DNA of 64,000 nt, from assembly GCA_964353335.1 (NCBI GenBank), contig CAYGVI010000003.1:263085-327084 (forward strand), written 5' to 3'. The position numbers and the translations under genes are program-made. How positions within the stretch are numbered: position 1 is the first letter of the stretch; every line of letters starts with the position of its first letter. Origin of the DNA: an uncultured Methanosarcinales archaeon. GTDB taxonomy: Archaea; Nanobdellota; Nanobdellia; Woesearchaeales; ARS49. Below the pieces are notes generated by a model, which was not told where the DNA came from, did not search any database, and was given only the letters and a program-made list of their open reading frames with translations. Positions 5,680 to 51,809 of the stretch are shown one piece after another.

Positions 5680-6465
5680 TTATCCGCCTGCGCTGGTGTA
5701 TTTTCTTATCGTGCTGTGCCAGGCCCACAAAGCAAGGACAAACAGCACAACAACAGGCATAATGACTCCTGCCATGCCAAGCGGCGTCATTCCGCGCAGC
5801 AATGCCTCGACAGGGTAAAACGAGCTTACTGCAACCGGAAACAGGAATGTGAGCGCGAACTGCAGTCCAACTCCGTAAACTGTCAAAGGATACCTTGCAA
5901 AGTCAGCCAGCTTCATGTAAAGTATGACAAGAGACTCATTCTTGACTGCGATGAAGCTTCCTGCAGTGATTAATGTTATGACTGCGAACTGGAAAAGCAC
6001 TCCTGCGCCCATCAGCACCAAATACATTGCAAATCCAAGGCTTAGCGCGCTTATGTGCAGCTTTGTCATCGTGTAGATTATTATGCCTACTCCAAGAATT
6101 GCCTCAAAAAAGCCATTCCAGTCAATGCCCATTGCCATCAGGTAGAGCCAGGAATTGTACGGCTTGAGCAAATACTTGTCAAACTCCCCGCGGTTGATTG
6201 CTTCAAATGCCTTCCAGAAAAAATCACCTGTTAAAGCCCTTCCAACGCCGTAAACAAAGATGAGCGTCCCCTGGAACAGCAAAAACTGGTCAAAAGTCCA
6301 GCCTGGAATGCCGACTGTTGTGCCGTAAATTATAAGCGCGAGCATTGGTCCGATAAGGTCGTTTATCACCATTCCGCACATCATGATAATGAAGTTTGCT
6401 TTGTATGCAAGTTCCTTGTTCAGGTAAATCTGCGCTGTTTTTGCCGCGAGTGTGAAGTATTTCAT
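5680..6465 (-). CDS. ABC-2 type transporter permease
   Basis: Likely start 'MKYFTLAAKT' (ATGA overlap with the upstream permease); ~6 TM helices; follows the ABC ATPase and a first permease in the same operon. Confidence 0.6.
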   Translation of the reverse strand: MKYFTLAAKTAQIYLNKELAYKANFIIMMCGMVINDLIGPMLALIIYGTTVGIPGWTFDQFLLFQGTLIFVYGVGRALTGDFFWKAFEAINRGEFDKYLLKPYNSWLYLMAMGIDWNGFFEAILGVGIIIYTMTKLHISALSLGFAMYLVLMGAGVLFQFAVITLITAGSFIAVKNESLVILYMKLADFARYPLTVYGVGLQFALTFLFPVAVSSFYPVEALLRGMTPLGMAGVIMPVVVLFVLALWAWHSTIRKYTSAGG

Positions 6466-14048: not shown

Positions 14049-15125
14049 TTACCGCGTGACGTCAAAGCTTTTCACTTTTTCAAGCAGTTCTTTTGGCTTT
14101 CCCCTGCTGAAATGCTTCCTGACAGGCTCAAGATAGCTGTCAATTGCTGCAGCAACCGCCTTTTTCAGGTCCATTGGGTGCAGTTTGCCTGTTGCATATG
14201 CCTTTTCAAGCTCTTCAAAGCTCTTTAAGTTGATATCCCCGCCAAACTTTTCAGGCCTTGGTATCATGAGTTCATTTTGTTTTTCAAAAACAATGTATTT
14301 GCAGTACTCCAGTATCGGGTTTTCGTGCAATTGCTTTGCAGGGCAGTAGGCGTTTCCTATTTTGCGCTCCACATCCTTTGATGTGTCATCCATGAAGATT
14401 GCGCTGTCAGGGTTGCTCTTGCTCATTTTCATTGCTATTGCGCGCTCAACAGCGTCTTTTTCTTCTGATGCAGGCGGCTGCTGGAGCCCCATGAGCATGT
14501 GGTGGTGGACTGCAACAGGCGTTTTGTATCCGAGCTTGGGTGCCATCTCCCTTACAAGCACGTTTACCTTGCGCTGGTCCATTCCCAATTGGCAGATGTC
14601 TATGTTGAGCTGGAATACGTCTGCTGCCTGCATTACAGGATAGAAAATCTGGGATGCATTAAGTGATTCGCTTTCCTTTCTGCCCATTATCTGCGAGCAG
14701 CGCACAATCCTGTTTACAGTGTTGTGTCTTGCTATCTGCATTACTGTTTTCCAGTATTCGCTTTTGCCTGCATAATCAGAGCACCATACAAACTTGACCT
14801 TGTTTACATCCATTCCGCAGGCTTTCCAGACTTCAACAAAGTATTTGCCTGCTGTCTGAATTTTGTCAAGGTCTCCGCCAAACTTGTTGTTTGCCCAGGC
14901 ATGCCAGTCTGCAACCCACATTATGAATTCGCAGCCTGCATTGAGCATCTTGTTGACATTGATTGCCCTTAACAGCCCCTGGCCGATATGAAGCCTTCCA
15001 GAGGGCTCAAAGCCGTCATAAGCTACTGGATTTTTCTTTTTCTCAAGAAGCTCCCTGAGTTCCTTCTCTGTGAGAATTTCCTCCCCAACCTGCTTTATTA
15101 GTGCAAGGCGCTCATCAATGTTCAT
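14049..15125 (-). CDS. tyrS: Tyrosyl-tRNA synthetase (archaeal type)
   Basis: 358 aa; 'AYDGFEPSGRLHIGQG' (HIGH region), 'KMSKS', and a C-terminal segment 'RPEKFGGDINLKSFEELEKAYATGKLHPMDLKKAVAAAI' that matches archaeal TyrRS closely. Confidence 0.85.
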   Translation of the reverse strand: MNIDERLALIKQVGEEILTEKELRELLEKKKNPVAYDGFEPSGRLHIGQGLLRAINVNKMLNAGCEFIMWVADWHAWANNKFGGDLDKIQTAGKYFVEVWKACGMDVNKVKFVWCSDYAGKSEYWKTVMQIARHNTVNRIVRCSQIMGRKESESLNASQIFYPVMQAADVFQLNIDICQLGMDQRKVNVLVREMAPKLGYKTPVAVHHHMLMGLQQPPASEEKDAVERAIAMKMSKSNPDSAIFMDDTSKDVERKIGNAYCPAKQLHENPILEYCKYIVFEKQNELMIPRPEKFGGDINLKSFEELEKAYATGKLHPMDLKKAVAAAIDSYLEPVRKHFSRGKPKELLEKVKSFDVTR

Positions 15126-16645: not shown

Positions 16646-17608
16646 TCAGCTAGTTGCAGGCGTCTCTGCTGGCGCTTCCCCTGAGTTCTTGACTGTCAGT
16701 TGTGTCTGCTTGTATTCTTCGTAGTCATATGTGACATCTATGCTTATCTGCTGTTCAAAGTCTGTCCTTGAGGTTACTGTCTGCGTGCAGGTAACAATCT
16801 TCTTTCCTTCGTAGAGTGTCACAAATCCTGCTGCCTTTGTCCCTGTTGTTGTGAGCGGGGTGCAAACCAGCCCTGGCATTCCTGTGTCAACACTAACATA
16901 AACCTTGTTTTCCTTTGCCCTGGTGCTCCTGTCGCATACAGAGCCCTGCTCAAATATCTGTCCTGTTCCTGCGTTGGAGATTTCAAAGCTGAAGCTGAGC
17001 TTGTCCTTTCCGCGCGCTGTCTCTTTTACAGCTCCGACCTGCACTGGCGCCCCTGAGTTCTTGGCGTCTTTGTCCTCGTTGATTTCGCAGATTCCGCCTG
17101 CCTCTGGCGCGAGCAGGTTTGAACGTATGCAAATCTTGCTGGCTGCCTGCGTCAGGTATGTGTAGCAGATGTCTGCGCGCAATGGGAATGTGACCTGTGA
17201 GCCTGATATTGGCGAGAAGTGGTTGAGCCCTGTGAATTCAATTGTTGACTGGCTTCCGGGGAGCACGTTTCCCTGGGCATCCTTTTTAACACCCATGAGC
17301 TCTTCTGAACTTGCCTTTGTCAGCTCTTCCTCGTGCTTGCTGAATTCCGCAGGGTTGATTCCTGAAATCTTCACCCTTACCCTGCCTGTTGCAACAGTTG
17401 CCTCTCCCTTGTTTTCAATCTTGACAACAACATCAAATGGGTCCCTTCCGCCGTCAAACACAGCGCTGCGGAAATCAAGGAAGTCAGCAACAAGACCTGC
17501 TGTGCCGCCAACAAAAGGCGATCCGAGGTCAACAGTCTCTCCTGTTTTCCCTCCAGTGCACGCAGTAAGCATTGCAAAAAGAACCATTATCGCTATAATC
17601 TTTCGCAT
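16646..17608 (-). CDS. Secreted lipoprotein, paralog family member 1 (hypothetical)
   Basis: Start at 'MRKIIAIMVLFAMLTAC' (lipobox LTAC); ~320 aa; third of three tandem paralogs in the operon. Confidence 0.55.
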   Translation of the reverse strand: MRKIIAIMVLFAMLTACTGGKTGETVDLGSPFVGGTAGLVADFLDFRSAVFDGGRDPFDVVVKIENKGEATVATGRVRVKISGINPAEFSKHEEELTKASSEELMGVKKDAQGNVLPGSQSTIEFTGLNHFSPISGSQVTFPLRADICYTYLTQAASKICIRSNLLAPEAGGICEINEDKDAKNSGAPVQVGAVKETARGKDKLSFSFEISNAGTGQIFEQGSVCDRSTRAKENKVYVSVDTGMPGLVCTPLTTTGTKAAGFVTLYEGKKIVTCTQTVTSRTDFEQQISIDVTYDYEEYKQTQLTVKNSGEAPAETPATS

Positions 17609-17665
17609 AGGCATTTCCGAGGATAATTGGTATATAAACATTTCTATGGCGTATTTGTTTTCGGC

Positions 17666-18595
17666 TTATACGCCAGGCAGAATGGTAAGGTCCTGGAACA
17701 GCGAGTCCTTGTATCCATAGCGCAGGTGTACTGTTATCGGGCTCACATATGTTGCCTCTCCGCGCGGCCTGTCAAACTCGCAGTACACAACTCCCTGCCT
17801 GTTTGTCAGCCTTATGTGGCCTGAGTCAAGCGGCCTGCAGCTTCCCCTTATGGAAACTCCGCTTACGCTCACATCCCCGAGTTCAACATAGTCCACCTCG
17901 TCAAAGCCGAGCTGGCCTCCTGGTGCGCATTTGTTGAGCATAGACCCGCCTGACCTGAAGACTTGTCCTCCTCCGACATTCTGGACATGTATCTTGAACC
18001 TTGTCTTGCCTGGGCTTGCGTCAACCTCTATTGTGTTTACCGAGATTGGCGCTCCCTGTCCGCCTCCAAGCCCCACATTCTGGGGTATGCAGACCTTTTG
18101 CATTACTGCAGCAGCATATGGCTCAGGGTCAATGCAGACATTTGCAGAGGCAACTGTTTCGTATTCATAGCACGCTGTTGCAAGAAGCCTTACAGGATAC
18201 CTGTCTGTCAGAATCCGCGTCATTGCCTTGAATGAGACAGTGTCAAAGCCTCCCTGGCTGATGAACTGTGTCCTTCCCTCAAGCAGTGGTATCTGTTCGC
18301 CTGCTGGTGAAATTCCGCTGATTATTGACGGGTCAAAACCTGAGACATAAACGCGGTCTCCTGGCCCGCCAACAGTATAAGTGCCCCTGTTTTCAAGTTC
18401 AAGGACAACAGCGAGCTGTTCTCCTGAGAAAAGCCTTGTCGGCGGCATGTTCTGGCTGAACCTCATCGCGAGCCCTTGCGAGCCTGTCCTGAATTCCTGG
18501 ACAAATGTTTGCTGTGTCTTGGATACTGTTCCAGACTTGCAGCCTGCGAGCAATAGTATGAGCATGATTCCTAAAACCAGGATTGCCTTTCGCAT
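17666..18595 (-). CDS. Secreted lipoprotein, paralog family member 2 (hypothetical)
   Basis: Start at 'MRKAILVLGIMLILLLAGC' (lipobox LAGC); shares 'NxGxGQ', 'ICI', 'xVxxxYxY' features with its neighbours. Confidence 0.55.
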   Translation of the reverse strand: MRKAILVLGIMLILLLAGCKSGTVSKTQQTFVQEFRTGSQGLAMRFSQNMPPTRLFSGEQLAVVLELENRGTYTVGGPGDRVYVSGFDPSIISGISPAGEQIPLLEGRTQFISQGGFDTVSFKAMTRILTDRYPVRLLATACYEYETVASANVCIDPEPYAAAVMQKVCIPQNVGLGGGQGAPISVNTIEVDASPGKTRFKIHVQNVGGGQVFRSGGSMLNKCAPGGQLGFDEVDYVELGDVSVSGVSIRGSCRPLDSGHIRLTNRQGVVYCEFDRPRGEATYVSPITVHLRYGYKDSLFQDLTILPGV

Positions 18596-18633
18596 TGTGT
18601 TCAAGCCCGATTTTGAATTATATAAATGTTTGG

Positions 18634-19557
18634 TCATTGTTGAAGTGCAGGCAGTAGTTTCACCTGCGTTGTTTTGCTTGCAATGTAGCCGTAATCAAGC
18701 GCGACTGAGAGCGGGGCAGTGTATGTTCCAAGCCTTGAGTCAATCCCCTCTTCCACCCGGCAGATGACTTTTGTCTCGCCCTGCGGCTTTATCTTGACTG
18801 TCTGGGGCGCGCAGGTCATTGGGCTGTCAGAGAGAACTGCGCCTACAGAAACAACATTCCATCCTCCTTCTCCAAGGGACCGTCCTGAGCACGCGTCGCG
18901 GTAGAGCGGGGATGATACAATCTGTCCGCTTCCCTGGTTCTTGAGAGTGAGTGTGAATTCAGGTATTACCCTGCCTGGCATTTCATGCGGCATCATCCTC
19001 TGGTCAACTGTTGCGACAGCGACAGGTGCGCCCTGCCCCTGCGGGAATGACTGCGCTTTTGCCGTGCAGACCTTGTCTGTTTTCTTTCCTGTTAGGTCTG
19101 TGTCTATGCATACTATTATTGCAGCGTTGGTAACATAGGGATAGCAGGCATTGAATGTGATTGTGGTCGTGTAGCCCTGCAGTTGCGGCCCAAGCGCCTT
19201 TGTGGTGAATGGCAGGTTGACCTGCGTCTCCATTCCCTGCGGTATGAATTCTGACTTGCCCCTGACAATAAACCTGCCCTGCTGCTTGGGGGTGTAAAGG
19301 TATTGGGGCTCATAGCTGATTGAGAAAACCCCTTCGTCAACATCTGTTGCGCCGAGGTTTGAGAGTGTTGTGAGCATTGTGAACTTGCTGTTCTCATAAA
19401 CTTCAGGCGGAGGGGAATAAGGGGTGAAATAAATTTCAACTCCCTGGTTTCCCACTTTCACTTCAGGCAGCGACATTGTGCTTTTGCTCTGGAAAAGCCC
19501 GTACTGGCAGCCTGCGAGCAGGAGCATAATCATTGCCAGAGTGAGTGTTTTTTTCAT
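18634..19557 (-). CDS. Secreted lipoprotein, paralog family member 3 (hypothetical)
   Basis: 'MKKTLTLAMIMLLLAGC' lipobox; 307 aa; stop overlaps the downstream paralog start. Confidence 0.55.
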   Translation of the reverse strand: MKKTLTLAMIMLLLAGCQYGLFQSKSTMSLPEVKVGNQGVEIYFTPYSPPPEVYENSKFTMLTTLSNLGATDVDEGVFSISYEPQYLYTPKQQGRFIVRGKSEFIPQGMETQVNLPFTTKALGPQLQGYTTTITFNACYPYVTNAAIIVCIDTDLTGKKTDKVCTAKAQSFPQGQGAPVAVATVDQRMMPHEMPGRVIPEFTLTLKNQGSGQIVSSPLYRDACSGRSLGEGGWNVVSVGAVLSDSPMTCAPQTVKIKPQGETKVICRVEEGIDSRLGTYTAPLSVALDYGYIASKTTQVKLLPALQQ

Positions 19558-21107
19558 ACCGTTGCCTGCGGTTGTGATTCCCGCACTGTTGCGCTTGTTG
19601 TGCGCTCAAGCCTGTAGCGGTATTGCACGCTTGCCTTGAAGTTCTGCACTCCAAGAGGCGCCTTGCCAAGCACTTTTTCAGAGTTTTCAATATCAATCGG
19701 GATGCGGAATGTCTTCATTGTGAGGTTTTTGTAAATTGCCTTTGAAAGCTCTTCTGTTGTTAGCGCGTAAACCTTTACAAGGGTGTCATCGCATGTTGCG
19801 CGCTCTTCTTCAGCCATGGCATCGCAGCTTGACTCAGTTATGCCAACACCTTCAATATTGGCAATCTTCAGCCCTGCAGGAATTATTATGAACACATTTG
19901 TTAGGTCAAGCACTTTTCCTTCCCACGCATTCTCAATTGTGAGCCCAAGGCTTGACAGCGGGTCTCCTGATGCTCCAATTGCAACAGGCTGCTGGCCGAT
20001 TGACATTCCAATGCGCACAGGCCCTGATGTGTAAATTGCAATGGGGCTCTTATCAGGGATGTTTGCAAGAGGGTCAACATTCTGCCGCCTGTACTCCTTC
20101 AGCCTTTCCATGTCAATCATGTATGCCTTGAGGTATGCTCTTGTTGTGAATTCAAATTCAGACCTTAGCCTCAAGGTGTGGCTGCCTTTTGGAAGTACTC
20201 CCTTGTTCCATACACAGTCAATGTCATACTGGTCTGAAGTCAGGACTGAGAATGACTCTTTTGGGCGCACCATGCTTGCAGTGGTGTTTGAGTCTGCGTC
20301 GCACAGGATGTTTATGTTGAGCTCTTTGTCAATTGTTTCTGCTTTCATCGTGGCATATGCCATTACCGGAGTGTTGTCGTAAAATATTGGCTCAGAAGTC
20401 CTGAAGTTTTCAAGATAAACCCCAAGCCTTTTCTTTGCTGCAGTGTCAACCTGGCCTGTGTAATAATCCCCTGTTGCCATTCTGTAAGAGCGGGTTGCTT
20501 CCTCTGCAAACATTGATGTTGTTTTTTGACCGTAGGTTATCAGGTTTGTCCAGCCTTCCTGCGCTTTTTCCCAGGAATAGCTTAACACCATGCTCGGGCT
20601 CAGGCTGTTTGGCATTGGATAGCCGCTTTCCTGTGCGTATTGCTGGATGTTTGGGAAAAGCATGAACATGACTATGAAAAACCAGAGGATTGTGTAGCTG
20701 AGTGAGAACCAGGTTGGCGCTGCCTGGGTTGCGAATACGACTGCGAGCAGCCAGAATGGCGCGATTATCATCATTATTGCCGCGAGGTATTTTATTGCAG
20801 GGAAATAATTCGGGGCTATTGACCAAAGAGGGCCCCAGACATAGGCAATGAGCGCGATGATTACAAGGCTTTTTGTGCCGACATCCTTGAATGCCTCTAG
20901 CTTGTTTGCGATTAAAAAGACAACGCCATAAAAGAAAGCGAACCCGAGCCACAGCCCAGGGCTTCCAGAGTTTCCTCCAATCGGGAAAGGCAGTGTGCCA
21001 TAGCGTACGAAACAGTCAAAAAAATGCAAAAGAATAACCAATCCCAGGAAACCTGTCAGTGACTTTCCTCCTGACAAAGGAGTTCCTGCGGGGGCAGGCA
21101 TTTTCAC
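19554..21107 (-). CDS. Large polytopic membrane protein (hypothetical) with extracytoplasmic C-terminal domain
   Basis: 517 aa; ~6-8 TM helices in the N-terminal half, soluble C-terminal domain; translationally coupled with flanking genes. Confidence 0.55.
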   Translation of the reverse strand: MKMPAPAGTPLSGGKSLTGFLGLVILLHFFDCFVRYGTLPFPIGGNSGSPGLWLGFAFFYGVVFLIANKLEAFKDVGTKSLVIIALIAYVWGPLWSIAPNYFPAIKYLAAIMMIIAPFWLLAVVFATQAAPTWFSLSYTILWFFIVMFMLFPNIQQYAQESGYPMPNSLSPSMVLSYSWEKAQEGWTNLITYGQKTTSMFAEEATRSYRMATGDYYTGQVDTAAKKRLGVYLENFRTSEPIFYDNTPVMAYATMKAETIDKELNINILCDADSNTTASMVRPKESFSVLTSDQYDIDCVWNKGVLPKGSHTLRLRSEFEFTTRAYLKAYMIDMERLKEYRRQNVDPLANIPDKSPIAIYTSGPVRIGMSIGQQPVAIGASGDPLSSLGLTIENAWEGKVLDLTNVFIIIPAGLKIANIEGVGITESSCDAMAEEERATCDDTLVKVYALTTEELSKAIYKNLTMKTFRIPIDIENSEKVLGKAPLGVQNFKASVQYRYRLERTTSATVRESQPQATV

Positions 21108-22303
21108 TCCACCCGCACATCAACGCTGATTATGTTGAGGTCAGCCATTGGTTCTATTCCGATGAAGTTGTTTCCGTCCCTGACCACTTCTGAGATGTCG
21201 CGCCCGAACTTGGGCGCTTTCTGCGAGAGCACATCAAGCCTTCCATTCACATTGGTCTGGGCTTCCTTCAGCTGCCCGTCATCCACAAACTCAATCTCAA
21301 GTATTGCGTGCGCCTTTCCTGTTACGATTGCGTTGAAGACTTCTGGCTTGATAAAGAAGAAATCAGAATATCCCTTTGTGGGCTTGACAAATGTCTTTAT
21401 CTTTATCTGCTCTATGCGCGCATTGCCTGAAGCGAGCCTGAAGCCGAGAGTGTTCTTTCCTGCTGCAAAGTCCTCCTTGAAGAGGTCCTCGCGCCCTGGG
21501 TTTTCGCATACAGGGACTGCAGAGTAAATCACTTTTCCATTAAGTGTTATGTCAAGCACTCCGACAGTGTTCTGGTCGCAAATAGGGTAGAATCCAAGGT
21601 ATGCTGTCTCAATGTTCTGGTGCTCTGCTTCAGGGATGCTGAACGCGTTTGCCGCCTGCTGTTTCTTGAGGTCGGTTATTTCGCCGATTATCTTCACGTC
21701 CTCCATATTGTACTGGCGCTTGAATATGAGCCCAAAGCCCCACACCTGGAATTCAACAGAGTTTTCTGTCTTCAGCAATCCCCTTGGTATTGGTATTGGG
21801 TTTGGATTCTGCACATTGATTGTATTCTCAAATACAGGAACACCATTGAATATTATTTTCAGCCTTCCACGCCTTATTGGCGTCTGGAATATGAGGAAGA
21901 CATTGTCAACGCTTTCAAGGTCAGATATGTAGAAGCTGACATTCCTGAACTGCCTGCTGAACCATCCTTTCTTAATGATAAATGGCGGAGCGTCTGCCAT
22001 TACTTTTGCCTGGCGTTCCTCTGAAAGCAAAATGTTTGGGATGACGTGCTGGAATTCTGTCTGGCCGACAAATGCCAGCCTGCCTGGCGCTCCCTTGAAG
22101 ATTGTTTCGCCGCCTTCAGGAATTACCCCGGGCACGACTCCTTCCTGGTCTTCCTGCAGTAATTCCTTGCGCTCTGCCGGAGGGAGGAAAAGGATATAGA
22201 ATATTATCAGGAGGGTGATAATGCCAACCAGTGTCGATGCTGCTGAACCGCTTGCCTGTCCGCGTTTTCTCACTTTATTCACCTTCTTTTTGTAAACAAG
22301 CAA
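21104..22303 (-). CDS. N-terminally membrane-anchored extracellular protein (hypothetical)
   Basis: 399 aa; basic N-terminus then TM 'LVGIITLLIIFYILFL'; first gene of the 5-gene minus-strand operon. Confidence 0.5.
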   Translation of the reverse strand: MLVYKKKVNKVRKRGQASGSAASTLVGIITLLIIFYILFLPPAERKELLQEDQEGVVPGVIPEGGETIFKGAPGRLAFVGQTEFQHVIPNILLSEERQAKVMADAPPFIIKKGWFSRQFRNVSFYISDLESVDNVFLIFQTPIRRGRLKIIFNGVPVFENTINVQNPNPIPIPRGLLKTENSVEFQVWGFGLIFKRQYNMEDVKIIGEITDLKKQQAANAFSIPEAEHQNIETAYLGFYPICDQNTVGVLDITLNGKVIYSAVPVCENPGREDLFKEDFAAGKNTLGFRLASGNARIEQIKIKTFVKPTKGYSDFFFIKPEVFNAIVTGKAHAILEIEFVDDGQLKEAQTNVNGRLDVLSQKAPKFGRDISEVVRDGNNFIGIEPMADLNIISVDVRVE

Positions 22304-22395
22304 ATTCGTACATATATAAATGTATTGCCCTGTTTTACCGCAACCTTTTTAAGCACCGTTCACTACTTTTTAGTTAGAATACAGGGGGATTTGGT

Positions 22396-22899
22396 ATGAA
22401 ACCGCTTCGACTGCTTGCACTTGCAATTGTGATGGTTCTTTCAGCTTTCAGTGTTTCTGCGTATTATTATGCAGACGACTATTATGACAATTATTATCCT
22501 GCTTATGGCAATGATTACAGCAGCTCATATTCGCGCTCCTCTAATTCAGAGAGTGTGAGCGTCCGCGAGTCAGAGAGTGAAAGGTCCTCAAGCTCCAGCT
22601 CAAGGTATTATCCAAGGCAGAGCACAAGTTATTCGCGCTCAAGGGATTTTTCATTCTCAAGAAGCTCTGAGTCAGAAAGCGAGAGCGCGAGTTATGATTC
22701 TGGCTACAATTATCCTTCAAGCCGTTATTATTATGATGGCATTGATTACCGCTATCCGTATTATGATGCAGGCACAAATTACGGCTATGATTACCGGCCG
22801 TTCTCAGACTATTATGAGTATGGGTACACAAGCCCATACTACAACAGGTACTCAGGTGTGGGCTCGTATTCAAAATATCCGCCATATGGCTATTACTGA
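22396..22899 (+). CDS. Secreted Tyr/Ser/Asp-rich low-complexity protein
   Basis: 167 aa; Sec signal 'MKPLRLLALAIVMVLSAFSVSA', then YY/DY dipeptide repeats, SESESES acidic poly-Ser, ~26% Tyr. Confidence 0.5.
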   Translation: MKPLRLLALAIVMVLSAFSVSAYYYADDYYDNYYPAYGNDYSSSYSRSSNSESVSVRESESERSSSSSSRYYPRQSTSYSRSRDFSFSRSSESESESASYDSGYNYPSSRYYYDGIDYRYPYYDAGTNYGYDYRPFSDYYEYGYTSPYYNRYSGVGSYSKYPPYGYY

Positions 22900-22901
22900 A
22901 A

Positions 22902-23534
22902 ATGAAAAAGCTCGCATTGTTAGTACTTGTAGCAGTCCTGTCTATTGAGCTAGCATCAGCAAAAGTTTTCTTTTATGATGACGAAGTTGATTACAGGAGC
23001 AATGTCGGCTATGCATTAAGCAATCCTTGGAAAGGCATTGACCTTGATGTTGTTGGCGACTTTGACAACTATAACTGCATCTCTGCTGATGACTACAACA
23101 GGCGTGCAAACTCAAACTCCTATGATGCCAATGATGAGCTTAACGCGAGGACTGCATCATCAAGCGACCTGAAAAAAATTCGAAGAGCAGACCAGCTTGC
23201 AATCGCAGACGAAAATCCTTATGATGGCATTGACCGAGATGACTTTGACAATTATAATGACTGGAACTGCTACACTCTCAAGGACTATAATTCTCTTGCA
23301 AGGCAAAATCCTTATGACAGCAAGCGCGTTGTTGACTTCACTCACTTTGATGACATTTACGAAGTCCAGGAAATCGGCAAGTACAGGTATAACAATTTCT
23401 TCCAGCCAGACGACTTCAACAAGTTCAACCTGCAGTACACGCAGGCAAGGCAGCCATACTACGAGCCATATGATTACAGGGATTCTCCATACCCATTGTA
23501 CGGTTATGGCATTGTGCGCCGTGAAGATTATTAA
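22902..23534 (+). CDS. Secreted Asp/Asn/Tyr-rich repeat protein
   Basis: 210 aa; Sec signal 'MKKLALLVLVAVLSIELASA'; internal ~36-aa repeats 'NPxxGIDxDxxxDFDNYNxxxCxxxDYN'. Confidence 0.5.
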   Translation: MKKLALLVLVAVLSIELASAKVFFYDDEVDYRSNVGYALSNPWKGIDLDVVGDFDNYNCISADDYNRRANSNSYDANDELNARTASSSDLKKIRRADQLAIADENPYDGIDRDDFDNYNDWNCYTLKDYNSLARQNPYDSKRVVDFTHFDDIYEVQEIGKYRYNNFFQPDDFNKFNLQYTQARQPYYEPYDYRDSPYPLYGYGIVRREDY

Positions 23535-23542
23535 ACCACCTT

Positions 23543-24607
23543 GTGTTCTTGCGTTTTATGAAGCAGCTTGCATTAAAGCTCAAGCAGGGAGAGGCAAAAG
23601 TATTAGTTGAAAACCCAGATGACTTGTGGTTTCTCAACAATATTATTGACAAGGGAGACCAGATTAAGGGAAAGACACTGCGCAAGCTTAAGGTGAATGA
23701 AGAGGCTTCTGCTGAGAGAAAGAAAGTTTTTCTCGCCATACAGGTTGAGAAAGTTGAGTTCACAGCAACAGAGCTGAGGGTTGCAGGAAAAGTCACAGAA
23801 GGTCCTGAGGATGTTCCGAAAGGCAGCTATCACACTTTCTCAGTCGAGGTTGGAAGCACAATCACAATAATCAAGACTGAATGGCTCGGCTACCAGCTTG
23901 ATTATCTCAAGGAAGCAACAACAGCAAAGGTGCCGAAGATTGTTCTTTGCGTTTTTGACCGCGAGGAGGCATTGTTTGCAAAGCTCACGCGCGACGGCTA
24001 TGAGATGCTGACAACAATCAAGGGCAAGGTCGCGAAGAAATCAGTTCCTGAAAAAGTAAAGGAAACATTTTACGAGAGCATTATTGAACAGCTTGAGCAG
24101 TATGACAAGCGGTTTGAGCTTGACAAAATAATAGTCGCGAGCCCTGCATTTTGGAAAGAGGACTTGTACAAGGTTCTTGGCAACCAGAAATTAAAGGAAA
24201 AAATAATCCAGGCAACGTGCTCTGGTGTTGACGAAACAGCAATCGCAGAAGTCCTGAAAAGAAAAGAAACACAGGAAGCACTGCGACAGGAGCGTGTCAG
24301 CAGGGAAATGTCAATTGTTGAGGAATTGTTCAGCAAAATCGCAAAACAGGGTCCAGCAGCTTACGGCATGAAAGAAACAGCAATTGCCGCAGAAGCAGGC
24401 GCAGTGGAGCACTTGTTAGTCACAGACAAGATTATCCAAAAAGCGCGCGAAGCAGACAGGTTTGCAGCGCTTGACAAAATAATGAAGCAGGTTGACCGCG
24501 CCAAGGGAAAGGTGTGGATTGTCTCGACAGAGCACGAGGGCGGCAAGCGCCTGGAAGGGCTTGGCGGCATTGGAGCAATACTGAGATACAAGATGTCATG
24601 GGAATAG
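23543..24607 (+). CDS. pelA: Pelota/Dom34 mRNA surveillance factor (aPelota)
   Basis: 354 aa; N-terminal 'VLVENPDDLWFLNNIIDKGDQIKGKTLRK' Sm-like domain, eRF1-like central and C-terminal domains. Confidence 0.85.
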   Translation: MFLRFMKQLALKLKQGEAKVLVENPDDLWFLNNIIDKGDQIKGKTLRKLKVNEEASAERKKVFLAIQVEKVEFTATELRVAGKVTEGPEDVPKGSYHTFSVEVGSTITIIKTEWLGYQLDYLKEATTAKVPKIVLCVFDREEALFAKLTRDGYEMLTTIKGKVAKKSVPEKVKETFYESIIEQLEQYDKRFELDKIIVASPAFWKEDLYKVLGNQKLKEKIIQATCSGVDETAIAEVLKRKETQEALRQERVSREMSIVEELFSKIAKQGPAAYGMKETAIAAEAGAVEHLLVTDKIIQKAREADRFAALDKIMKQVDRAKGKVWIVSTEHEGGKRLEGLGGIGAILRYKMSWE

Positions 24608-33442: not shown

Positions 33443-35512
33443 ATGGGAAAAAAGAGGTTGTTGGCGCTAATTACATTTCTGGCTCTCCTAGGCGCATCTG
33501 CAGCAGCAGGCGCTACTATTGCGGGATACGCTGAAGAATATGTCTATACAAACCCCGGCTGCATCCCTTTTTGTTTTGGGAATAACAAAACATATGACCT
33601 TGGCGGAACATTTCAGGTTTTTGAAGCGACCAAAGTGGGTGGCCACCAGAATCATGAGGCAGAGTGGTTTGACGGCGGGCTTGCGCTCTTTGTTGGCAAC
33701 ACCCAGACCACGAGCTGGTACTTTTTGGGGGCTGCAAACCGCCCTCTGCAGACATTTTACCATGATTTTAACGGCTCATATGCAGACCGCGTTGTTGCCT
33801 GTGGCTGCAGTTATGACTACCACCAGAGCACCCACCCTTTTTCAATAGAATACAACAGGAATTTCTTTGTCAGAAGGACCAGTGTATTAGACGACCCAAA
33901 CGAGCCGCTCGGTGAGGCTGGAAGCTTCTTTACCAAGTTTTCAAACCTGACAAATGACTCAGGATGGAGGATAAGAGTGAATGCTGCCAGCCCCAACTCA
34001 ATGGTTTGGCTTGGTGACGAGGAAAGCTACACCACGCATGAAACCTCTGATTTGACTGCTAAAGTGTATGGCTGCGCAGACACAAACAAAAACCAAATCT
34101 GCGATGTTAGAGAGCCGAGCTTTATGTTATGCAATGATGTAGGCGGCGACTGGTACGATGACTTGTGTTGCGGAACAAACTATACAGAAGGATATGTCAA
34201 GTCAGAACCCATAAATATCACCCAGATTTGTGTTCAAAGCACTTATGCAGGATCCTGCACTCGTTATGCCGATGTTGTGCACAACAAGAGCATTAATGCC
34301 ATTTGCGGAAAGACTGCTGAAGGAAAATGGAAATGGGCTCCGCTTGATGAGGTTGGTGAAGTTTTTGACCTTCTCGGCTGGCCAAATGCATCTGTTGTTT
34401 CTGACGGAACAAACCTTTACAGCTGTGGAAACCAGATTGAAAACTACTCAGTACCGTCTGATGTTTACTCGGTGTGCTTAAAAACAGAAAGGCAACGGAC
34501 TGCAAAGGGATATGAGGATGTTTGCGTCAAGTACCAGTATTTGTGGAGACACACACAAATCATCAACAGCCCTGCAACAACCCTGTTTGGGCAATTCATC
34601 AGTGTCGCTGTCGGCAGTGCAACTCACATGTATTCCTGCAAGGACAAGGTTGTTTACGAATGCTCTGGCAAGACAGGGCCTTTCTCAACAAACAATGGCG
34701 CTGAGATGGGCACAACAAACCCGAGCTTTACTAATGAAACATTTTACTGCGCCTCTGACGCTGACTGGACATCTGACCTTGACATAAAGGACGATGAGAG
34801 CTGTGAGGCAGCAGGATTTTCATGGACAGGCTCGCGCTGCTGCAGCGAGGCAGATGACACTTCAGAATACTACAATGACCCCAAGTTCCCGAATGCAACA
34901 GGCGGCTGCTGGAACAAGATGTTTGTCAGGTCAGGCGATTATGCAGTAACTGACAGGATTCTCAACTACAAGGGCAAATTCTTCGGCTGCAGACTCAGCC
35001 TGATAAATGATGCCATCCTGCTTAATATCAAGGATTATCACCTGGATAACCTGCTTATTGACAACAGCATAACCCCTTGCGGCGCGGTGCTTATGGATGC
35101 CCAGCCAGGCGGAATGCCGCACGCAAAATGCCAGCCGAACGGCGAGTGGATGTTTACTGACGAGCCTGGCGGAGTAATCAACAAGAGCATAAAGTGGGCA
35201 GGCCTTGTCGGTCCGGGAATAGCATTGTCAGGCTGCTGCGCTCCAGACCAGTGCTGGAATGGCACAAAATGCCAGAAGCTCGGGACTTATTACAGGCTTG
35301 GCGAAGAGGGTTTCATTTGCAAGATGCTGCCGCCAACTTCAACGCCAGAACCGCCTACATCAGAAATATGTCACCACAACAATGATTGTCCCACGGGGCA
35401 ATACTGCGCAGATCAGGAGTGCATCAGTGGCTCGCTTCCAGATACCTGCGCTAACAATAATGCGTGTCCTTCGGGATATCACTGCCAACAACACGAATGT
35501 GTTGAAGAGTAA
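33443..35512 (+). CDS. Large secreted Cys-rich protein (hypothetical surface protein)
   Basis: 689 aa; Sec signal 'MGKKRLLALITFLALLGASAAAG'; >50 Cys; C-terminus carries two 'NxCPxGxxCxxxxC' knots. Confidence 0.6.
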   Translation: MGKKRLLALITFLALLGASAAAGATIAGYAEEYVYTNPGCIPFCFGNNKTYDLGGTFQVFEATKVGGHQNHEAEWFDGGLALFVGNTQTTSWYFLGAANRPLQTFYHDFNGSYADRVVACGCSYDYHQSTHPFSIEYNRNFFVRRTSVLDDPNEPLGEAGSFFTKFSNLTNDSGWRIRVNAASPNSMVWLGDEESYTTHETSDLTAKVYGCADTNKNQICDVREPSFMLCNDVGGDWYDDLCCGTNYTEGYVKSEPINITQICVQSTYAGSCTRYADVVHNKSINAICGKTAEGKWKWAPLDEVGEVFDLLGWPNASVVSDGTNLYSCGNQIENYSVPSDVYSVCLKTERQRTAKGYEDVCVKYQYLWRHTQIINSPATTLFGQFISVAVGSATHMYSCKDKVVYECSGKTGPFSTNNGAEMGTTNPSFTNETFYCASDADWTSDLDIKDDESCEAAGFSWTGSRCCSEADDTSEYYNDPKFPNATGGCWNKMFVRSGDYAVTDRILNYKGKFFGCRLSLINDAILLNIKDYHLDNLLIDNSITPCGAVLMDAQPGGMPHAKCQPNGEWMFTDEPGGVINKSIKWAGLVGPGIALSGCCAPDQCWNGTKCQKLGTYYRLGEEGFICKMLPPTSTPEPPTSEICHHNNDCPTGQYCADQECISGSLPDTCANNNACPSGYHCQQHECVEE

Positions 35513-35527
35513 GCATAAAAAAGAGGA

Positions 35528-36727
35528 ATGATGGGAATGAAATGGGTTTGGGCATTGGTATTTTTGATACTTGCAGTTCTGCCATTTGTTGCCGCAGAAG
35601 ACCAGGCTGACTGGTTCGCAATTCCGATACGCTACTCTTGGGACCTGTCAATGGGAGGCTCTTGCACAAACAGCACCCAGTGCCTCATACACCTGCTTGG
35701 AAACGACACTTATGACGGCGACATACAAAGATACTTCAAGCAGTTGGACACCCCTGGGCTCGGTCCGAGGTGCGCAAACAATTCGCAGTACATACTTGAT
35801 TATTCCTGCGATGCAGGAAACTGGACAACCCGCACAAAATACCTTGCGCTTTACCTCCTGAAATATGCCGAGGCAAATTCAGCAGGCGCATTCACGCTTT
35901 ACTGTGACACTTATGAGCGCGTGCTGAACCAGTTCAGTTATTATGTGAAGAACGTGCTTGTGTCTGATTATTTCCAAAATGCCTGTGTCATTCAGGGAAA
36001 GACTGTTCCCTGCATTAACAAAATCTGCGTGCTGAGAACACCCCAGGTTGTCGCAATCGGAACCACAATCAATGGGCCAATCAATGACCCTGCCCGCTCA
36101 TTCCTGATTGCGCTGAATGAAAGCCCTTCATTGTGCGACGGCCACGATGCTGAGCACGGAACTGATTTCACAAAATGCGAAGCTGAAAAGCCTGTTTGGT
36201 ATAACCCCTCATTGCAGGCTGTTGTCTGGCTTTCTGCAGGCTCTCTTGCACCGCCAACAGCAGACACCAGGACAAAAATCACAACGCCAATGAGCAGCAT
36301 GAGCTCTTATGTGATGAATGTCCTGCACAATGAGGCAAAGTCTGGGATGAATTTCATTTATTTCCCGCGCACAAGATTGTTCAACCACATTTATGTTGCG
36401 CAGAACGGCCCAAGGGGGATATTTGGCTTCCTTGAGGCAGGCTTGCGCCCAGAGTACACGCTCCTGCCTGATAATGAGTCAGAGCCAATCCCGCTTGACT
36501 ACATCGGCGTGCGTTACACAGGAATAGAGCTGTATGAAACCAGCAACCTCACCTGCCTGAATCTCATAAAGAAGTATGACACCAATGCATTCTGCGAAAA
36601 CCAGACAGCAACAGGATTCAATGTAATCGCAAGGCACCGCTGCGAGCCGGGCTATGAGGATAAATGCAAGGGCGCAAGCCCGATTGTGGGAGTATGGCCT
36701 GCCTTGGCAGGAAAGCTGAGGCCATGA
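35528..36727 (+). CDS. Secreted Cys-containing protein (hypothetical)
   Basis: 399 aa; signal 'MKWVWALVFLILAVLPFVAAE'; multiple N-x-S/T sequons. Confidence 0.5.
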   Translation: MMGMKWVWALVFLILAVLPFVAAEDQADWFAIPIRYSWDLSMGGSCTNSTQCLIHLLGNDTYDGDIQRYFKQLDTPGLGPRCANNSQYILDYSCDAGNWTTRTKYLALYLLKYAEANSAGAFTLYCDTYERVLNQFSYYVKNVLVSDYFQNACVIQGKTVPCINKICVLRTPQVVAIGTTINGPINDPARSFLIALNESPSLCDGHDAEHGTDFTKCEAEKPVWYNPSLQAVVWLSAGSLAPPTADTRTKITTPMSSMSSYVMNVLHNEAKSGMNFIYFPRTRLFNHIYVAQNGPRGIFGFLEAGLRPEYTLLPDNESEPIPLDYIGVRYTGIELYETSNLTCLNLIKKYDTNAFCENQTATGFNVIARHRCEPGYEDKCKGASPIVGVWPALAGKLRP

Positions 36728-38043
36728 AAATGAAAGCGCAGCTTACGCTGATGATGCTAATGGGGCTTGTAATGCTTATCGCGGTTGGAATTGTTTTGTA
36801 CATCGGCGGGTCTTCAATGACAAAAAGCACAGAGCGGGGAAGTGAGCAGCAGCGTTTGAGCCAGTCTGCAATCCAGACAATCAGGGATTATGTCCACTCG
36901 TGCCTTGACGCAACCACAACAGCTGCATTGGACCTTATCGGAAAGCAGGGCGGAGTGCTTTACAGGGCGCAGGGCGGCTTGACTCCTGACATCCTGCCTT
37001 CAGACCCGCAGGGCGGGCGCTATGTTATTTATGATGGGCTTAATGTCAGCTACCTCATCCACAGGCCCAGCCAGAATGTTGGCAGGCTTTATTTTGCAGA
37101 GCCTCCGGATTATCCATGGGTTACATTCCCGTATGTCCTTAACAAGTCAGACATGTCAGTCATGAGGACAACATACACCGGCTACTTTGGCATATCGCTT
37201 TTGCCCCCGCTTTTCAAGCCAGGCAAGGACTCCATCCAGGAACAGATTGAGTCATACATCAGCTTCAACCTTCCGCGCTGCACAGACTGGAGCTCATTCA
37301 AGGGGCTTTCAATCACTGCTGACAAGCCAAATGTCTCTGTAATAATCGCAGAGAACAAGACGCAGATTGAAACAGAGCAGTATTTCTCAGTGGTCGCGAA
37401 CTGGCAGGTGAACATCACTGACAGTTCCACAGGTTCCAACACCACACTTGACATGTTCTCGCGCGGTTATCCTGTCCACCTCGCAAAATTCTATGTTTTC
37501 GTGCAGAGCCTGATTTACAGCGAGATAAATGATTCATCATTTGACCCGCTCTCGCAAAGCTCGCCTGCAAGCCCTGTTTTTGTTTTCAGGGACATTTTCA
37601 AAAATCCAGAGGATGAAGGCGCTGATGACCTGATTATTGTAAAGGATGCAGAGTCAGAATTGCGCGGCAAGCCATTGGAGTTCAGGATACTGAGGCAGAA
37701 CCGCTATCCTGCGCTTGTCTGGATAAACCAGTCTGACATCAACAGCTATGCGTTTTACAGGATGGGCATGTGCCCAGCGAAAGCGCAGTCAATATTCCTC
37801 GAAGGCAACCAGCTCAAAATAACTTATGCAACAGACTCTCCGTATGAATGGTCTGGCACGCTTTCAGCAATTGACCCTGATGAGGACAATGTCAGCTTCA
37901 GCATCAAGCCTGAGGACGGGATAATAGATGACGTCCCGCTAAATGACGCCCTGTTCAGGCTGTTTGTTTATGCCTCTGACGGCGGAAACACAAAGGATTA
38001 CCAGATTGTCAACCTGACACTTGCGGGTTGCCCTGAAGAATGA
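36724..38043 (+). CDS. Class III signal peptide (type-IV-pilin-like) protein, 440 aa
   Basis: Start 'MKMKAQLTLMMLMGLVMLIAVGIVLYIGG' (basic residues, A, then Q+1 and a hydrophobic helix) overlaps the upstream stop (ATGA); large extracellular domain. Confidence 0.5.
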   Translation: MKMKAQLTLMMLMGLVMLIAVGIVLYIGGSSMTKSTERGSEQQRLSQSAIQTIRDYVHSCLDATTTAALDLIGKQGGVLYRAQGGLTPDILPSDPQGGRYVIYDGLNVSYLIHRPSQNVGRLYFAEPPDYPWVTFPYVLNKSDMSVMRTTYTGYFGISLLPPLFKPGKDSIQEQIESYISFNLPRCTDWSSFKGLSITADKPNVSVIIAENKTQIETEQYFSVVANWQVNITDSSTGSNTTLDMFSRGYPVHLAKFYVFVQSLIYSEINDSSFDPLSQSSPASPVFVFRDIFKNPEDEGADDLIIVKDAESELRGKPLEFRILRQNRYPALVWINQSDINSYAFYRMGMCPAKAQSIFLEGNQLKITYATDSPYEWSGTLSAIDPDEDNVSFSIKPEDGIIDDVPLNDALFRLFVYASDGGNTKDYQIVNLTLAGCPEE

Positions 38044-41000
38044 GAAAACTTTTGCTTATCGCGGTGGTTGCGGCATTTTTCTACATGGCACTCTTTTCCC
38101 AACAGGCATCCGGCCAGGAGCAGGGATGCTGCTGCGAGCCGATTTATCACCGCGGAATCATTGAGGAGCGCTCTGCGTGCGAGGAAAAAGGATATAACTT
38201 CACGTCAGAGCTTCCTGCCGAGGTCGGAGAAAGCTGCGACCCCATCTGCAATTCAACATTCGGCATTCCAATCATCATAACCCCGCCTGCTGACTGCGAG
38301 TCCCCGTTTTTCAACCCTGCTCCAATGAGCGTGGTTGCAAAGGCAGTCAAGGGAAAGAAGCAGATCAGGCTAATCTACACTGTTCCGTGCCCGATGCAGG
38401 CAATTGCTGTTAACATCTCGCGCTGTGCAGGTGATGATTGCGAGGACTTTTCCCAGATTGCCCAGATGTCGCCCACAGGGGTTTACACTGACGCGTCACC
38501 TGACCTTCTCTGGAACACCCCTTACACTTACATGGTGGTCATTACCTCGCGGATTTCAGGCGCTTCAGAGCCTGGCTTCGCAATAGGCAATGCAGGTGAC
38601 ATTGAATGCTGGAATCAGGGATTTGACAAGTTTTGCATTTCAGATTACTACTACACCCGCTTCCAGGAATATTTGTCAATGTATGGCTACAAGGATACCA
38701 GTGCAGATGCATTTGCAGGCGATTTACAGTCTTCTGTTGAGCTGACATTTGCTGACAAGTTTAATACCGGGAGATACTGCAATGATATCAACCTGCTCAG
38801 CGACACTGGCTTAAGCTGCCCTGAAGGAAAGAAGTGTGTCTCAGGAAAGCTCGGGCTTGCTTGCATCACTCCAACGTCCTGCGAAGGCGGCGGATTGTTC
38901 GGGCTTTACTCATCACTTGAAACCTGCGAGGGAACCGCGTCCGCGAAGAAGTACTGCTTCTTTGACCGCTCGCACAGTTCTGTTGACCGGTGCTACTCCT
39001 GCAGTCCGCAGATGAGCTGCGCTGACTACAGGTCAGAGGGCACGTGCAACCGCGACAACTGCTTTGCAGGCAACTGCTCATGGAAGCCTGTTTTCCCTGA
39101 CATCGGAATCGGTGTTTGTGTTGACAGCAGGTTCCCAAACTGCGCGTGGTGCACAAAGCAGGGCACAGAAGGGCTTGAAAACACTGATGCCTACAATGAA
39201 GTGTTTGACCAGTGCACTACAAGGAAATCAATAGCGCTCACTGTTCCAAATTATCTTTGCACATTTGACAAGAATGCCCAGGAAAGCAATGGCTGTGACG
39301 CCACTGCCTGCATGGATTACAATGACACTGACTGCGGCTCGCCTGCAGGAGGCATTCAGCTCAATCCTGACAACTCGCTTGAGGTTGGAAGCACTGACCC
39401 GTGCAGCATAAAGGTCTGCCAGCTTCAGTCCGGCATAGGCTGCCTGAAGAATGCTGACGGAAACGGTCTCTTTGACTGCGGCATAAAATCTGATGACCGA
39501 AGGCAGTGCGAGCTTGACCATTATCCGCCGAACACAACTTTTGTCGCTACCTCTTACAAGCCAAACCGCATGGACTGGCTCGAGGCAAGGATGCTTGACC
39601 AGGTGAACGGCACTGCAGACGCAGATTACATGCAGGGCAAACAGGGCTACAGGCTGAGGGTTTGCGTTGACAGCGAAGAAACACCCTGCGCTGAAGCCAC
39701 AACATTTGCCGAGACAAACCTTTCCTTGCTGAACTTCAATGACCTTTACCTGCAGGCAGGCAGGGATGTGGTTGCCACGATGTCCGACGGCGAGAACACG
39801 CTGAAATATTATGGAGTTGACCGCAGCAACAACCCTGAAGTTATCAAGGAAATGACAATACTTGCCTGCGACAAATGCCAGGGGCCCAAAGTGCTTGGCA
39901 TCAATGTCACCCCAAGCCGGAGCTACGAAGGAAAGTTTTACACAATATCCGAAATTCCAGTAATAACTGTCGCGTTCAATGAGCTTTCAACCCTGACAAC
40001 TGCCACGCTTTCAATCGGCAACAAGGTGATGCCTGTAAACGTCATGCCTCTTGGAGGGGCGAATTATGATTACACTTTTATCCCGATAAACACGCTGGAG
40101 GATGGCGAATACCTGCTGGCGTTCAATGCAAAGGACAGCAATGGGCTGCTTATGGACTTGCCTGGCTTGGCAATTATTGTTGTTGACACCACCCCTGGGG
40201 ATGTCACAATACTTCCTCCTGACGGAACTGTCATCAATGACACGTCAGTTGCAATCTCTTTCACCTTCAATCAGCCTCCTGTCAGCCTGCTTGGTGCTTA
40301 CCTTGACAATGAAGTCTGGATTAGCAAGTATGCCACGAAGAAAAAAATAATGAACCTGACATCAAGCCTTGTGGAAACAGAGCCCAATAAGGTCTATGAC
40401 ACCACTGTCGATGAGCTTTACGGCGGAAAGAAGAACATCAGGGTTTATGCAGAGGACTTCGCAGGCAATCCTGTAATAGGAAAGTCAAGCTTCTGGATTA
40501 ACAGCGGCCCATTGCAGATGAGGATGCGCGAGCCGAGCTGGGGTGTAAGCGCAACATATGTGTTTGACATCGCGATTGATACATCAATAGCCGCCACGTG
40601 CAAGTATGCGTATGACCTGCCTGCGCCTGTTCCTGTTGCGGCGTTTAATGACTTCCTTGCCCCATTCCCAGAGGAAAAAGAGGTTGTCCACAAGATTCCC
40701 GGATTTAACAAGATTTCTTTCGGTGATATGAAAGCGCACAAGCTTAGTGTTTATTGCAAGGCAGGGGCTAACATCACGATGGAGACATTTGAGCTACGCG
40801 TTGACCCAAGCCCGCCAACAATCAAGTCTGCTTACGCAGACCCTGCGGTAATAATTGAGCGCAGGACTCCAAGCGTGGACATATTCACAACATACCTGAA
40901 GGCTCAGACAGATGATGACGGCTTCTGCAGGTACAGCACCGAGAGCAAGCCGTTCATACTTATGGACGGGCTGTTCTCAGGCTTTGACGAATACCCCAAG

Positions 41001-50551: not shown

Positions 50552-50715
50552 ACCCCTTCTTTTTTCACCGAAAGCCTTATATAAATAGTATTCTCGGAAT
50601 TGCTTATGAAAAAAGAGGCTGTGACATACACCCTACTTTTGTGGCTCGCAATGCTTCTTATACTGTTCTTAATCATAATTTCTGTCATGAGGCGCATGAC
50701 CGCAGGCGGTGCACC

Positions 50716-51642: not shown

Positions 51643-51809
51643 AATGATAAAAACACTTTATTCGTTGTGGAAAAACAGGAAGGCAATGGATATTCCCGGA
51701 TGGGCTTATGTCATCGCTTTGATTATCGGTCTGTTTGTGATACTGTTTGCAATCTGGATTGCTGCAAAGTCAGGTTCCAAGCAGTCCGGCTTCCTGGAGC
51801 AAATATAAG

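Follow-up and report, generated by a model that had tools for sequence, protein, structure and literature searches.

What do two small, adjacent genes in an archaeal genome encode whose products are loaded with tyrosine, and what might such proteins do outside the cell? The question is raised by a 64,000-nucleotide (nt) stretch of contig CAYGVI010000003.1, which we analyzed at its full length and call the window. A preliminary description, made from the letters of this DNA, had noticed a pair of neighboring, apparently secreted proteins, here named p1 and p2. Our data show that both are genuine genes and that a tract spanning their junction is exchanged between closely related genomes; tentatively, we propose that the products form a surface coat or adhesive. 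The genes are encoded as follows (aa, amino acids).

22396-22899, forward strand: p1, a 167-aa precursor with a Sec-type signal (residues 1-22) followed by a 145-aa low-complexity Tyr/Ser/Arg/Asp chain
22902-23534, forward strand: p2, a 210-aa precursor; residues 1-20 are a Sec-type signal, and an acidic domain (~160 aa, predicted to be all-helical) precedes a Tyr-rich tail

p1 and p2 are protein-coding genes

Several open reading frames (ORFs) overlap p1 and p2 on other frames, and in one related locus, L017, a gene caller picked an antisense ORF over p1. One may therefore suspect a spurious translation of repeat or low-complexity DNA, a reading that is refuted by conservation and to which we give practically no credence. 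In all 13 orthologous loci, the annotated frame contains no stop, and it is the only frame for which this holds; the other five are open only sporadically. Measured against twelve relatives, the ratio of nonsynonymous to synonymous substitution rates (dN/dS) is 0.08 to 0.29 for both genes (p1, 0.11 to 0.25; p2, 0.08 to 0.29), similar to that of neighboring membrane proteins. Indels are codon multiples, motifs keep their positions in the alignments of both proteins, and the Shine-Dalgarno-like sequence, the TATA-like box and the signal peptide are conserved. At the DNA level, neither a tandem nor a dispersed repeat was found, and the window has no other copy of 22396-23534 or of a part of it. 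In sum, p1 and p2 are real protein-coding genes under purifying selection. The preliminary description had suggested a check for homologs and had named lack of frame conservation in relatives as grounds for giving up its view; homologs were found, and their frame is conserved.

The overlapping ORFs had been taken for artefacts, rightly so, since their frames carry stops in relatives.

22541-22885, reverse strand: shadow ORF
22577-22948, forward strand: shadow ORF
23197-23610, forward strand: shadow ORF

In L017, the public gene call at 3541-3984 (reverse strand) is such an antisense shadow ORF (147 aa), and the p1 ortholog lies at 3489-3998 (forward strand). Antisense miscalls are a recurring risk for the Tyr-codon-rich p1 and probably explain why recorded p1 homologs are fewer than p2 homologs. 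Hence, there is an annotation hazard: gene callers sometimes overlook p1 or choose its antisense shadow ORF.

Export signals and composition

Inspection and hydropathy revealed a Sec-type signal in both precursors, with a basic n-region, a hydrophobic core of 12 to 15 residues and small residues at positions −3/−1. Cleavage is predicted after MKPLRLLALAIVMVLSAFSVSA in p1 (...SVSA/YYY) and after MKKLALLVLVAVLSIELASA in p2 (...ASA/KVF). The signals that had been noted in both proteins are thus present, although the AxA site ascribed to both is found in p2 and not in p1, which has VxA. The signal is kept in nearly all upstream p1-like ORFs and across the p2 alignments, so that n-region, h-region, −3/−1 residues and conservation among orthologs are all in place for both proteins. 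From these features, we infer that p1 and p2 are exported via Sec and are extracellular.

The richness in Tyr, Asp, Asn and Ser described before was confirmed. Mature p1 (145 aa) consists of 26.2% Tyr, 25.5% Ser, 8.3% Arg and 7.6% Asp and has a pI of 4.6; with a Tyr background of ~3% in the long ORFs of the window (n = 132 ORFs of ≥120 aa), it is an extreme outlier and has the high Tyr content in an exported protein that characterizes di-tyrosine wall and coat proteins. Mature p2 (190 aa) has 16% Asp, 12.2% Tyr and 10.1% Asn, a pI of 4.35 and a net charge of about −15. Low complexity, which had been claimed for both, applies to p1 (entropy of 2.3 to 3.1 bits in a 40-aa window vs. a background of 3.73 ± 0.18) and not to p2 (3.3 to 4.1 bits, near normal).

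The acidic block SESESESAS noted in p1 is indeed there. Closer inspection of the alignments revealed conserved islands in p1, namely SESVSVRESE, YxYGRSRDFSFSR, YPYYDxGTNYGYDYRPFSDYYE and a C-terminal YxPYGY(Y). Only 4 of the 145 mature residues are aliphatic and the GRAVY value is −1.47, which, together with the low entropy, argues against a hydrophobic core. p1 may therefore be a disordered chain whose Tyr and Arg residues would be "stickers" that are kept apart by "spacers" of Ser, Gly and Asp. Similarity between p1 and p2 does not exceed that of shuffled sequences (score of 70 vs. 53 ± 10). p1 is a new Tyr-rich exported low-complexity family.

p2 contains a duplicated, cysteine-bearing segment

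Three segments of p2 stand out.

23022-23129, forward strand: repeat copy 1, residues 41-76, NPWKGIDLDVVGDFDNYNCISADDYNRRANSNSYDA, holding the invariant C59
23214-23321, forward strand: repeat copy 2, residues 105-140, NPYDGIDRDDFDNYNDWNCYTLKDYNSLARQNPYDS, holding the invariant C123
23451-23531, forward strand: Tyr-rich C-terminal tail, residues 184-210, QPYYEPYDYRDSPYPLYGYGIVRREDY, whose terminal YGYG resembles the p1 C terminus

The internal duplication is significant (local score of 91 vs. 33 ± 6 for shuffles) and comprises two copies of ~36 aa plus a degenerate third start. The preliminary picture of a protein built from such repeats has to be revised: there are just two copies, not in tandem, with starts 64 aa apart, and with this spacing and its near-background entropy p2 is not a tandem-repeat low-complexity protein. 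An AlphaFold2 model from 21 sequences is moderately confident (pLDDT of 71.6, pTM of 0.65) and predicts short helices in an all-helical arrangement. C59 and C123 occupy equivalent positions of the two copies and are invariant in 18/18 aligned members, including relatives at 27 to 35% identity; D27, D97, D108, D139 and R162 are invariant in the same set. These positions suggest that p2 is probably stabilized by one C59-C123 disulfide.

For p1, p2 and the five proteins of the adjacent operon (described below), neither Pfam nor NCBIfam returned a meaningful match; lenient, family-wide Pfam scans were likewise negative, for p2 at a cutoff as loose as E ≤ 5. PDB sequence searches with profiles of the p1 and p2 families and of three operon proteins found no match, and a structure search with p2 found no fold match. 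As far as these searches reach, p2 is a new domain family without detectable relatives. The Asp/Asn-rich segments had been likened to Ca- or mineral-binding loops, a resemblance that does not hold up: the EF-hand pattern (PS00018, a 12-residue loop) and the dockerin and thrombospondin type 3 (TSP3) patterns (D.[DN].[DN]G.[IVL][DNST]..D; DxDxDGxxDxxDxC) are each found in 0/18 family members. Likewise, no Pfam EF-hand, dockerin or TSP3 match at E ≤ 5 and no structural neighbor was found. Possibly, p2 binds metal at an acidic site of a new type.

Distribution within a subclade of Woesearchaeota

We found 37 full-length p2 homologs, mostly 209 to 221 aa long and 42 to 100% identical, plus a few truncated fragments. 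Ten p1 homologs were detected, most of them full length, and more appeared on direct reading of the DNA of related loci. Few homologs of either protein have a name beyond "hypothetical protein," and most of the source organisms are labeled as Woesearchaeota or Nanoarchaeia. An exhaustive phmmer search over 1.84 billion representatives returned 15 clusters at E ≤ 1e-3. Among species genomes, a pattern-based scan matched at least 7 of 185,579; six are labeled Woesearchaeota or Nanoarchaeia, and the seventh (L009) "uncultured Methanosarcinales archaeon." Metagenomes contributed 14 further loci. A viral origin was considered and rejected, since no relative was found in IMG/VR. As judged from these matches, the family is small, and the pair occurs in just one subclade of Woesearchaeota, uncultivated and ultra-small archaea of the DPANN group.

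In the window, p1 and p2 are separated by 2 nt, and this arrangement is widespread: where upstream sequence is available (~28 loci), there is nearly always a p1-like ORF that ends 1 to 6 nt before the p2 start. These ORFs have 144 to 173 aa with 16 to 24% Tyr, a signal peptide and a C-terminal [LR]PYGY. A secreted Tyr-rich neighbor is present in L012, too, and the more distant genome L020 has, at the corresponding site, a p1-like gene and a p2-like gene that lacks the tail. In the distant p2 relatives P0055, P0056 and P0060, the core is fused to Tyr-rich N- and C-terminal extensions, and P0055 in addition has a C-terminal transmembrane (TM) anchor. A C-terminal YGYG[FI]RR-like motif recurs in distant relatives and is kept as YG[FY]G[FY]RR in P0056 and P0060. 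These fusions tie the p2 domain functionally to Tyr-rich sequence and make a place at the cell surface probable.

Alleles of the pair are exchanged between near-identical genomes

A finding not anticipated by the preliminary description is a mosaic tract across the junction of the two genes.

22601-23290, forward strand: mosaic allele-swapping tract of ~0.7 kb, covering p1 residues ~69-167 and p2 residues 1-130

The window and L005 share ~97% nt identity over 17 kb vs. 62 to 83% within the tract. Here, the synonymous divergence (dS) is 0.9 to 1.3, vs. 0.08 to 0.17 in the rest of both genes, and dN/dS is 0.17 to 0.31. High dS combined with low dN/dS points to old functional alleles rather than to local hypermutation. 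The window and L016 are 88 to 91% identical in the tract, whereas the flanks reach only ~76%. L018 is 100% identical to the window except at 23101-23290, where the identity falls to 71% with the window and reaches 88% with L005; by this pattern, L018 is a hybrid allele. L022 is recombinant as well, with a window-type allele behind a partly L005-like upstream region. Hence, alleles are exchanged among near-identical genomes. A diversity-generating retroelement was considered as the source of the variable tract and rejected: there is no template repeat in the window, and the differences, which include indels and synonymous saturation, are unlike A-directed mutagenesis.

A replacement tract of a similar kind was seen in the gene of the tyrosyl-tRNA synthetase (TyrRS; 14049-15125, reverse strand), where the block 14065-15064 is 65 to 86% identical to L005 at the nt level and the flanks 98 to 99%. 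It looks like an allele exchange in a housekeeping aminoacyl-tRNA synthetase.

Promoters and neighboring envelope operon

Aligning 13 intergenic regions revealed two sets of conserved elements of the archaeal promoter type, placed back to back, one in front of p1 and one in front of a divergent operon; the promoter function of both is deduced from the sequence.

22345-22352, forward strand: TATA-like box CTTTTTAA, putative p1-p2 promoter
22384-22389, forward strand: Shine-Dalgarno-like GGGGGA, 6 nt 5' of the p1 ATG
22313-22320, reverse strand: TATA box TTTATATA, putative promoter of the divergent envelope operon
16646-22273, reverse strand: five-gene envelope operon, divergent from p1

On the p1 side, the element AAcCTTTTTAA...TTCACTAC is kept in 13/13 regions, including those in which an insertion lies between it and the opposite promoter. 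A G-rich block with unchanged spacing is seen in almost all loci, with a degenerate form in L013, the most distant one. On the operon side, TAyATATATAAATGTATTG is conserved in 12/13 loci and recognizable with shifts in L013; the TATA box is accompanied by GAAGGTGA and by a GTG start for the operon at 22273 (reverse strand). Insertions lie between the two promoters in L009, L016 and L017, which indicates that the operon and p1 promoters are separable. The insertions carry GC-rich hairpin repeats (L016, ~3340-3495; L017, ~3285-3489; L009, ~6040-6304), for example CAACCCAGCGGCTGG...CCAGCCAGGGTT, which is duplicated in L017, and look like MITE-type elements.

The operon encodes, in the order of transcription, a pilin-like protein with an N-terminal TM segment (~389 aa if counted from the GTG at 22273), a polytopic membrane protein of 517 aa that has an ectodomain, and three lipoproteins. 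The likely true N terminus of the first protein, MRKRGQASGSAASTLVGIITLLIIF, looks like a class III (pilin-type) signal. The lipoproteins are paralogs of 307, 309 and ~320 aa, each with a lipobox, and are predicted to be double beta-sandwiches.

The pair always lies between Pelota and the five-gene operon and is adjacent to the operon in every locus with enough flank, down to ~40% identity. Downstream of the pair, the window encodes Pelota (eRF1 domains 1 to 3), a TrmB regulator and phenylalanyl-tRNA synthetase (PheRS) alpha/beta; upstream are the replication factor C (RFC) small subunit and TyrRS. By gene content, the window is archaeal. Scans of the window for tRNAs and Rfam families were empty. 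In some relatives, extra genes are inserted between p2 and Pelota (L016, 4633-5599, reverse strand, 54 aa and 253 aa; L020, 3433-4050, reverse strand, a cytoplasmic-looking protein of 205 aa), and therefore, the p1-p2 unit is separable from Pelota.

A model of a two-component surface layer and its alternatives

How could such a pair work? The explanation that we favor, with somewhat less than even confidence, is a secreted two-component, non-covalent surface coat or adhesive in which the p2 domain would dock and the Tyr-rich parts would self-associate. In our model, p1 and p2 would be co-transcribed, translationally coupled and exported via Sec as a subclade-specific pair and would act together outside the cytoplasmic membrane. 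p1 would contribute an intrinsically disordered chain of Tyr and Arg stickers between Ser/Gly/Asp spacers, and p2 a folded acidic helical domain that arose by internal duplication and is probably held by one disulfide, with a Tyr-rich tail of the p1 kind. The Tyr-rich segments may associate by pi-pi and cation-pi contacts, and the p2 domain may dock specifically, possibly bridged by cations, to the envelope or a partner surface. Surface exposure may also be the reason why divergent alleles of the p1 C terminus and p2 N terminus persist and are swapped by homologous recombination. Self-association, the role as coat or adhesive, and selection as the cause of the mosaic are the steps that we infer.

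Several observations weigh against this model. With no homology to characterized proteins and no fold match, the function is deduced from composition and context. The context in turn is weak evidence of a functional link to the envelope operon, because the housekeeping neighbors RFC and Pelota are equally syntenic with the pair. Furthermore, L019 has the operon without the pair, with Pelota abutting the operon across a gap of 75 bp, and the promoter-splitting insertions in L009, L016 and L017 speak against the link as well. As for the mosaic, the TyrRS tract lies in the same 17 kb, and therefore, mosaicism alone is no proof of surface-driven selection; a dN/dS of 0.17 to 0.31 in the tract gives no signal of positive selection. 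Finally, all contigs are metagenome assemblies, so that a chimeric assembly may underlie some of the junctions, but the divergent alleles as such are real.

The same observations can be read in other ways. The pair may be an adhesin for recognition of a host or partner, with the polymorphic p1 C terminus and p2 N terminus of these presumably episymbiotic cells contacting the host envelope, or a virus receptor, and its alleles may be kept by frequency-dependent selection. This would fit two old allele classes (dS of ~1) among genomes with 96 to 100% identical flanks, the intragenic recombinants L018 and L022, and a window allele that is closer to that of L016, another species, than to that of a sister genome. 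The absence of the pair in L019, which marks it as dispensable, and the precedent of variable surface proteins in DPANN archaea (PMC6142677) point in the same direction. However, no adhesin-like domain was found, the tract dN/dS stays below 0.31, TyrRS carries a similar replacement tract, and IMG/VR contains no viral copies, and we consider this reading unlikely. Bolder still, it is imaginable that these Woesearchaeota use p1 and p2 as a polymorphic "glue" to attach to host cells and to discriminate between them. The new acidic helical domain would present a disordered, adhesive Tyr-rich chain, and the alleles would be under balancing selection and traded across species. We hold this to be improbable; if true, it would represent a system for cell-cell adhesion and recognition of a class new for archaea.

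A different emphasis is placed by the idea that p2 mainly binds or buffers Ca2+/Mg2+ at novel Asp-rich helix-loop-helix sites and that p1 is an unrelated neighbor. The high Asp content (16%) and net charge (about −15) of p2 and invariant Asp residues at equivalent repeat positions (D47, D49, D53 and D55 in copy 1; D108 and D111 in copy 2) would agree with it, and the predicted architecture of short helices and loops may suit such sites. The 0/18 score for EF-hand, dockerin and TSP3 patterns and the lack of a Pfam Ca-binding family at E ≤ 5 or of a structural match argue the other way, and the tight translational coupling and the Tyr-rich fusions argue that p1 is not unrelated; there is little chance that this is the main role. 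The preliminary description had raised the idea of a cross-linked (di-tyrosine) or biomineral-associated matrix. A covalent or mineral-nucleating matrix of this kind would be comparable to the Tyr-rich proteins of coccidian oocyst walls, the Bacillus coat proteins CotC/CotU or acidic biomineral proteins. Indeed, p1 has 26% Tyr with YY and DY clusters and acidic Ser/Glu blocks, p2 is net negative, and Tyr-rich wall proteins of eukaryotic oocysts are documented to form dityrosine (PMC7366593, PMC3261165). Against this stand the lack of any peroxidase, laccase or tyrosinase among the 20 window proteins scanned against Pfam, which are a small part of the genome, and the lack of homology to any such protein. 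Moreover, several source genomes have isolate names of the hot-spring type (JZ-2, JZ-4); we take such habitats to be largely anoxic, which would make oxidative coupling unlikely. The positionally conserved non-Tyr motifs of p1 suggest specific interactions over bulk cross-linking. A covalent or mineralizing matrix is a doubtful candidate with a small probability. That the composition is unusual for an archaeon was a fair remark: in a search of the full-text literature, Tyr-rich cross-linked wall proteins were found for eukaryotes only, and no secreted Tyr-rich protein was found for an archaeon.

Other genes of the window

Further genes were noticed farther along the window.

33443-44712, forward strand: five large genes (689, 399, 459, 1692 and 367 aa), Cys-rich products with N-terminal signal/TM, no Pfam match
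45724-47622, forward strand: protein of 632 aa, hydrophobic segments at the N terminus, APH-type phosphotransferase/kinase domain at the C terminus (Pfam E of 1.8e-6)
50641-54908, forward strand: 333- and 1053-aa proteins with look-alikes of pilin-like class III signals (RRGAIGVNTLV..., MHKKGQFAGIPIPIILG...), no Pfam match

The first of these gene runs is probably another lineage-specific surface module.

Significance and comparison with known systems

DPANN archaea are mostly uncultivated and devote a large share of their small genomes to surface proteins without assigned function, through which they presumably depend on other cells. In this setting, p1 and p2 are a compact, experimentally tractable target: 145 and 190 aa in mature form, with a new family in p2, an exported chain in p1 that is unusually Tyr-rich for an archaeon, and allele exchange at the strain level. 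If they are components of a coat or adhesion system, they would help to learn how the surface of these cells is built or used; otherwise, they are still a well-defined, lineage-specific "hypothetical" pair.

In composition, p1 is reminiscent of the prion-like, low-complexity "sticker-and-spacer" domains of the FUS family: both combine Tyr/Arg stickers and Ser/Gly/Asp spacers and have almost no aliphatic residues, and a multivalent weak self-association would be expected. However, the FUS-family domains belong to intracellular, eukaryotic RNA-binding proteins, whereas p1 is acidic and has a signal peptide; the resemblance is one of composition only.

Tyr-rich structural coat or matrix proteins include CotC/CotU of Bacillus subtilis and the keratin-associated high-Gly/Tyr proteins. 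Coccidian oocyst walls contain Tyr-rich proteins that form dityrosine (PMC7366593, PMC3261165). Like p1, all of these are small, exported or extracellular, Asp/Ser-rich proteins of low complexity with 20 to 30% Tyr, and they make a matrix or glue by Tyr contacts or cross-links. p1 differs in that it has no homology to them, is archaeal, has conserved non-Tyr motifs and comes with an obligate folded partner; furthermore, no oxidase was seen near p1 among the 20 window proteins scanned. p2, in turn, shares with EF-hand, dockerin and TSP3 repeats short duplicated Asp/Asn-rich segments between short helices in an acidic extracellular protein, and with TSP3 the single Cys per repeat, but the defining loop patterns occur in none of its 18 members, and there is no profile or fold match.

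The closest parallel for the variability is found in Nanoarchaeota, where hypothetical cell surface proteins have an excess of nonsynonymous single-nucleotide polymorphisms (PMC6142677). Both cases concern lineage-specific hypothetical proteins of DPANN archaea that bear a signal or TM segment, with elevated diversity within populations on a background of purifying selection (PMC6142677). The gene families are different, and p1 and p2 vary by discrete old allele classes and tracts, not by scattered nonsynonymous polymorphisms. In sum, lineage-specific exported envelope proteins with biased composition and strain variability are a familiar kind, of which p1 and p2 represent new families.

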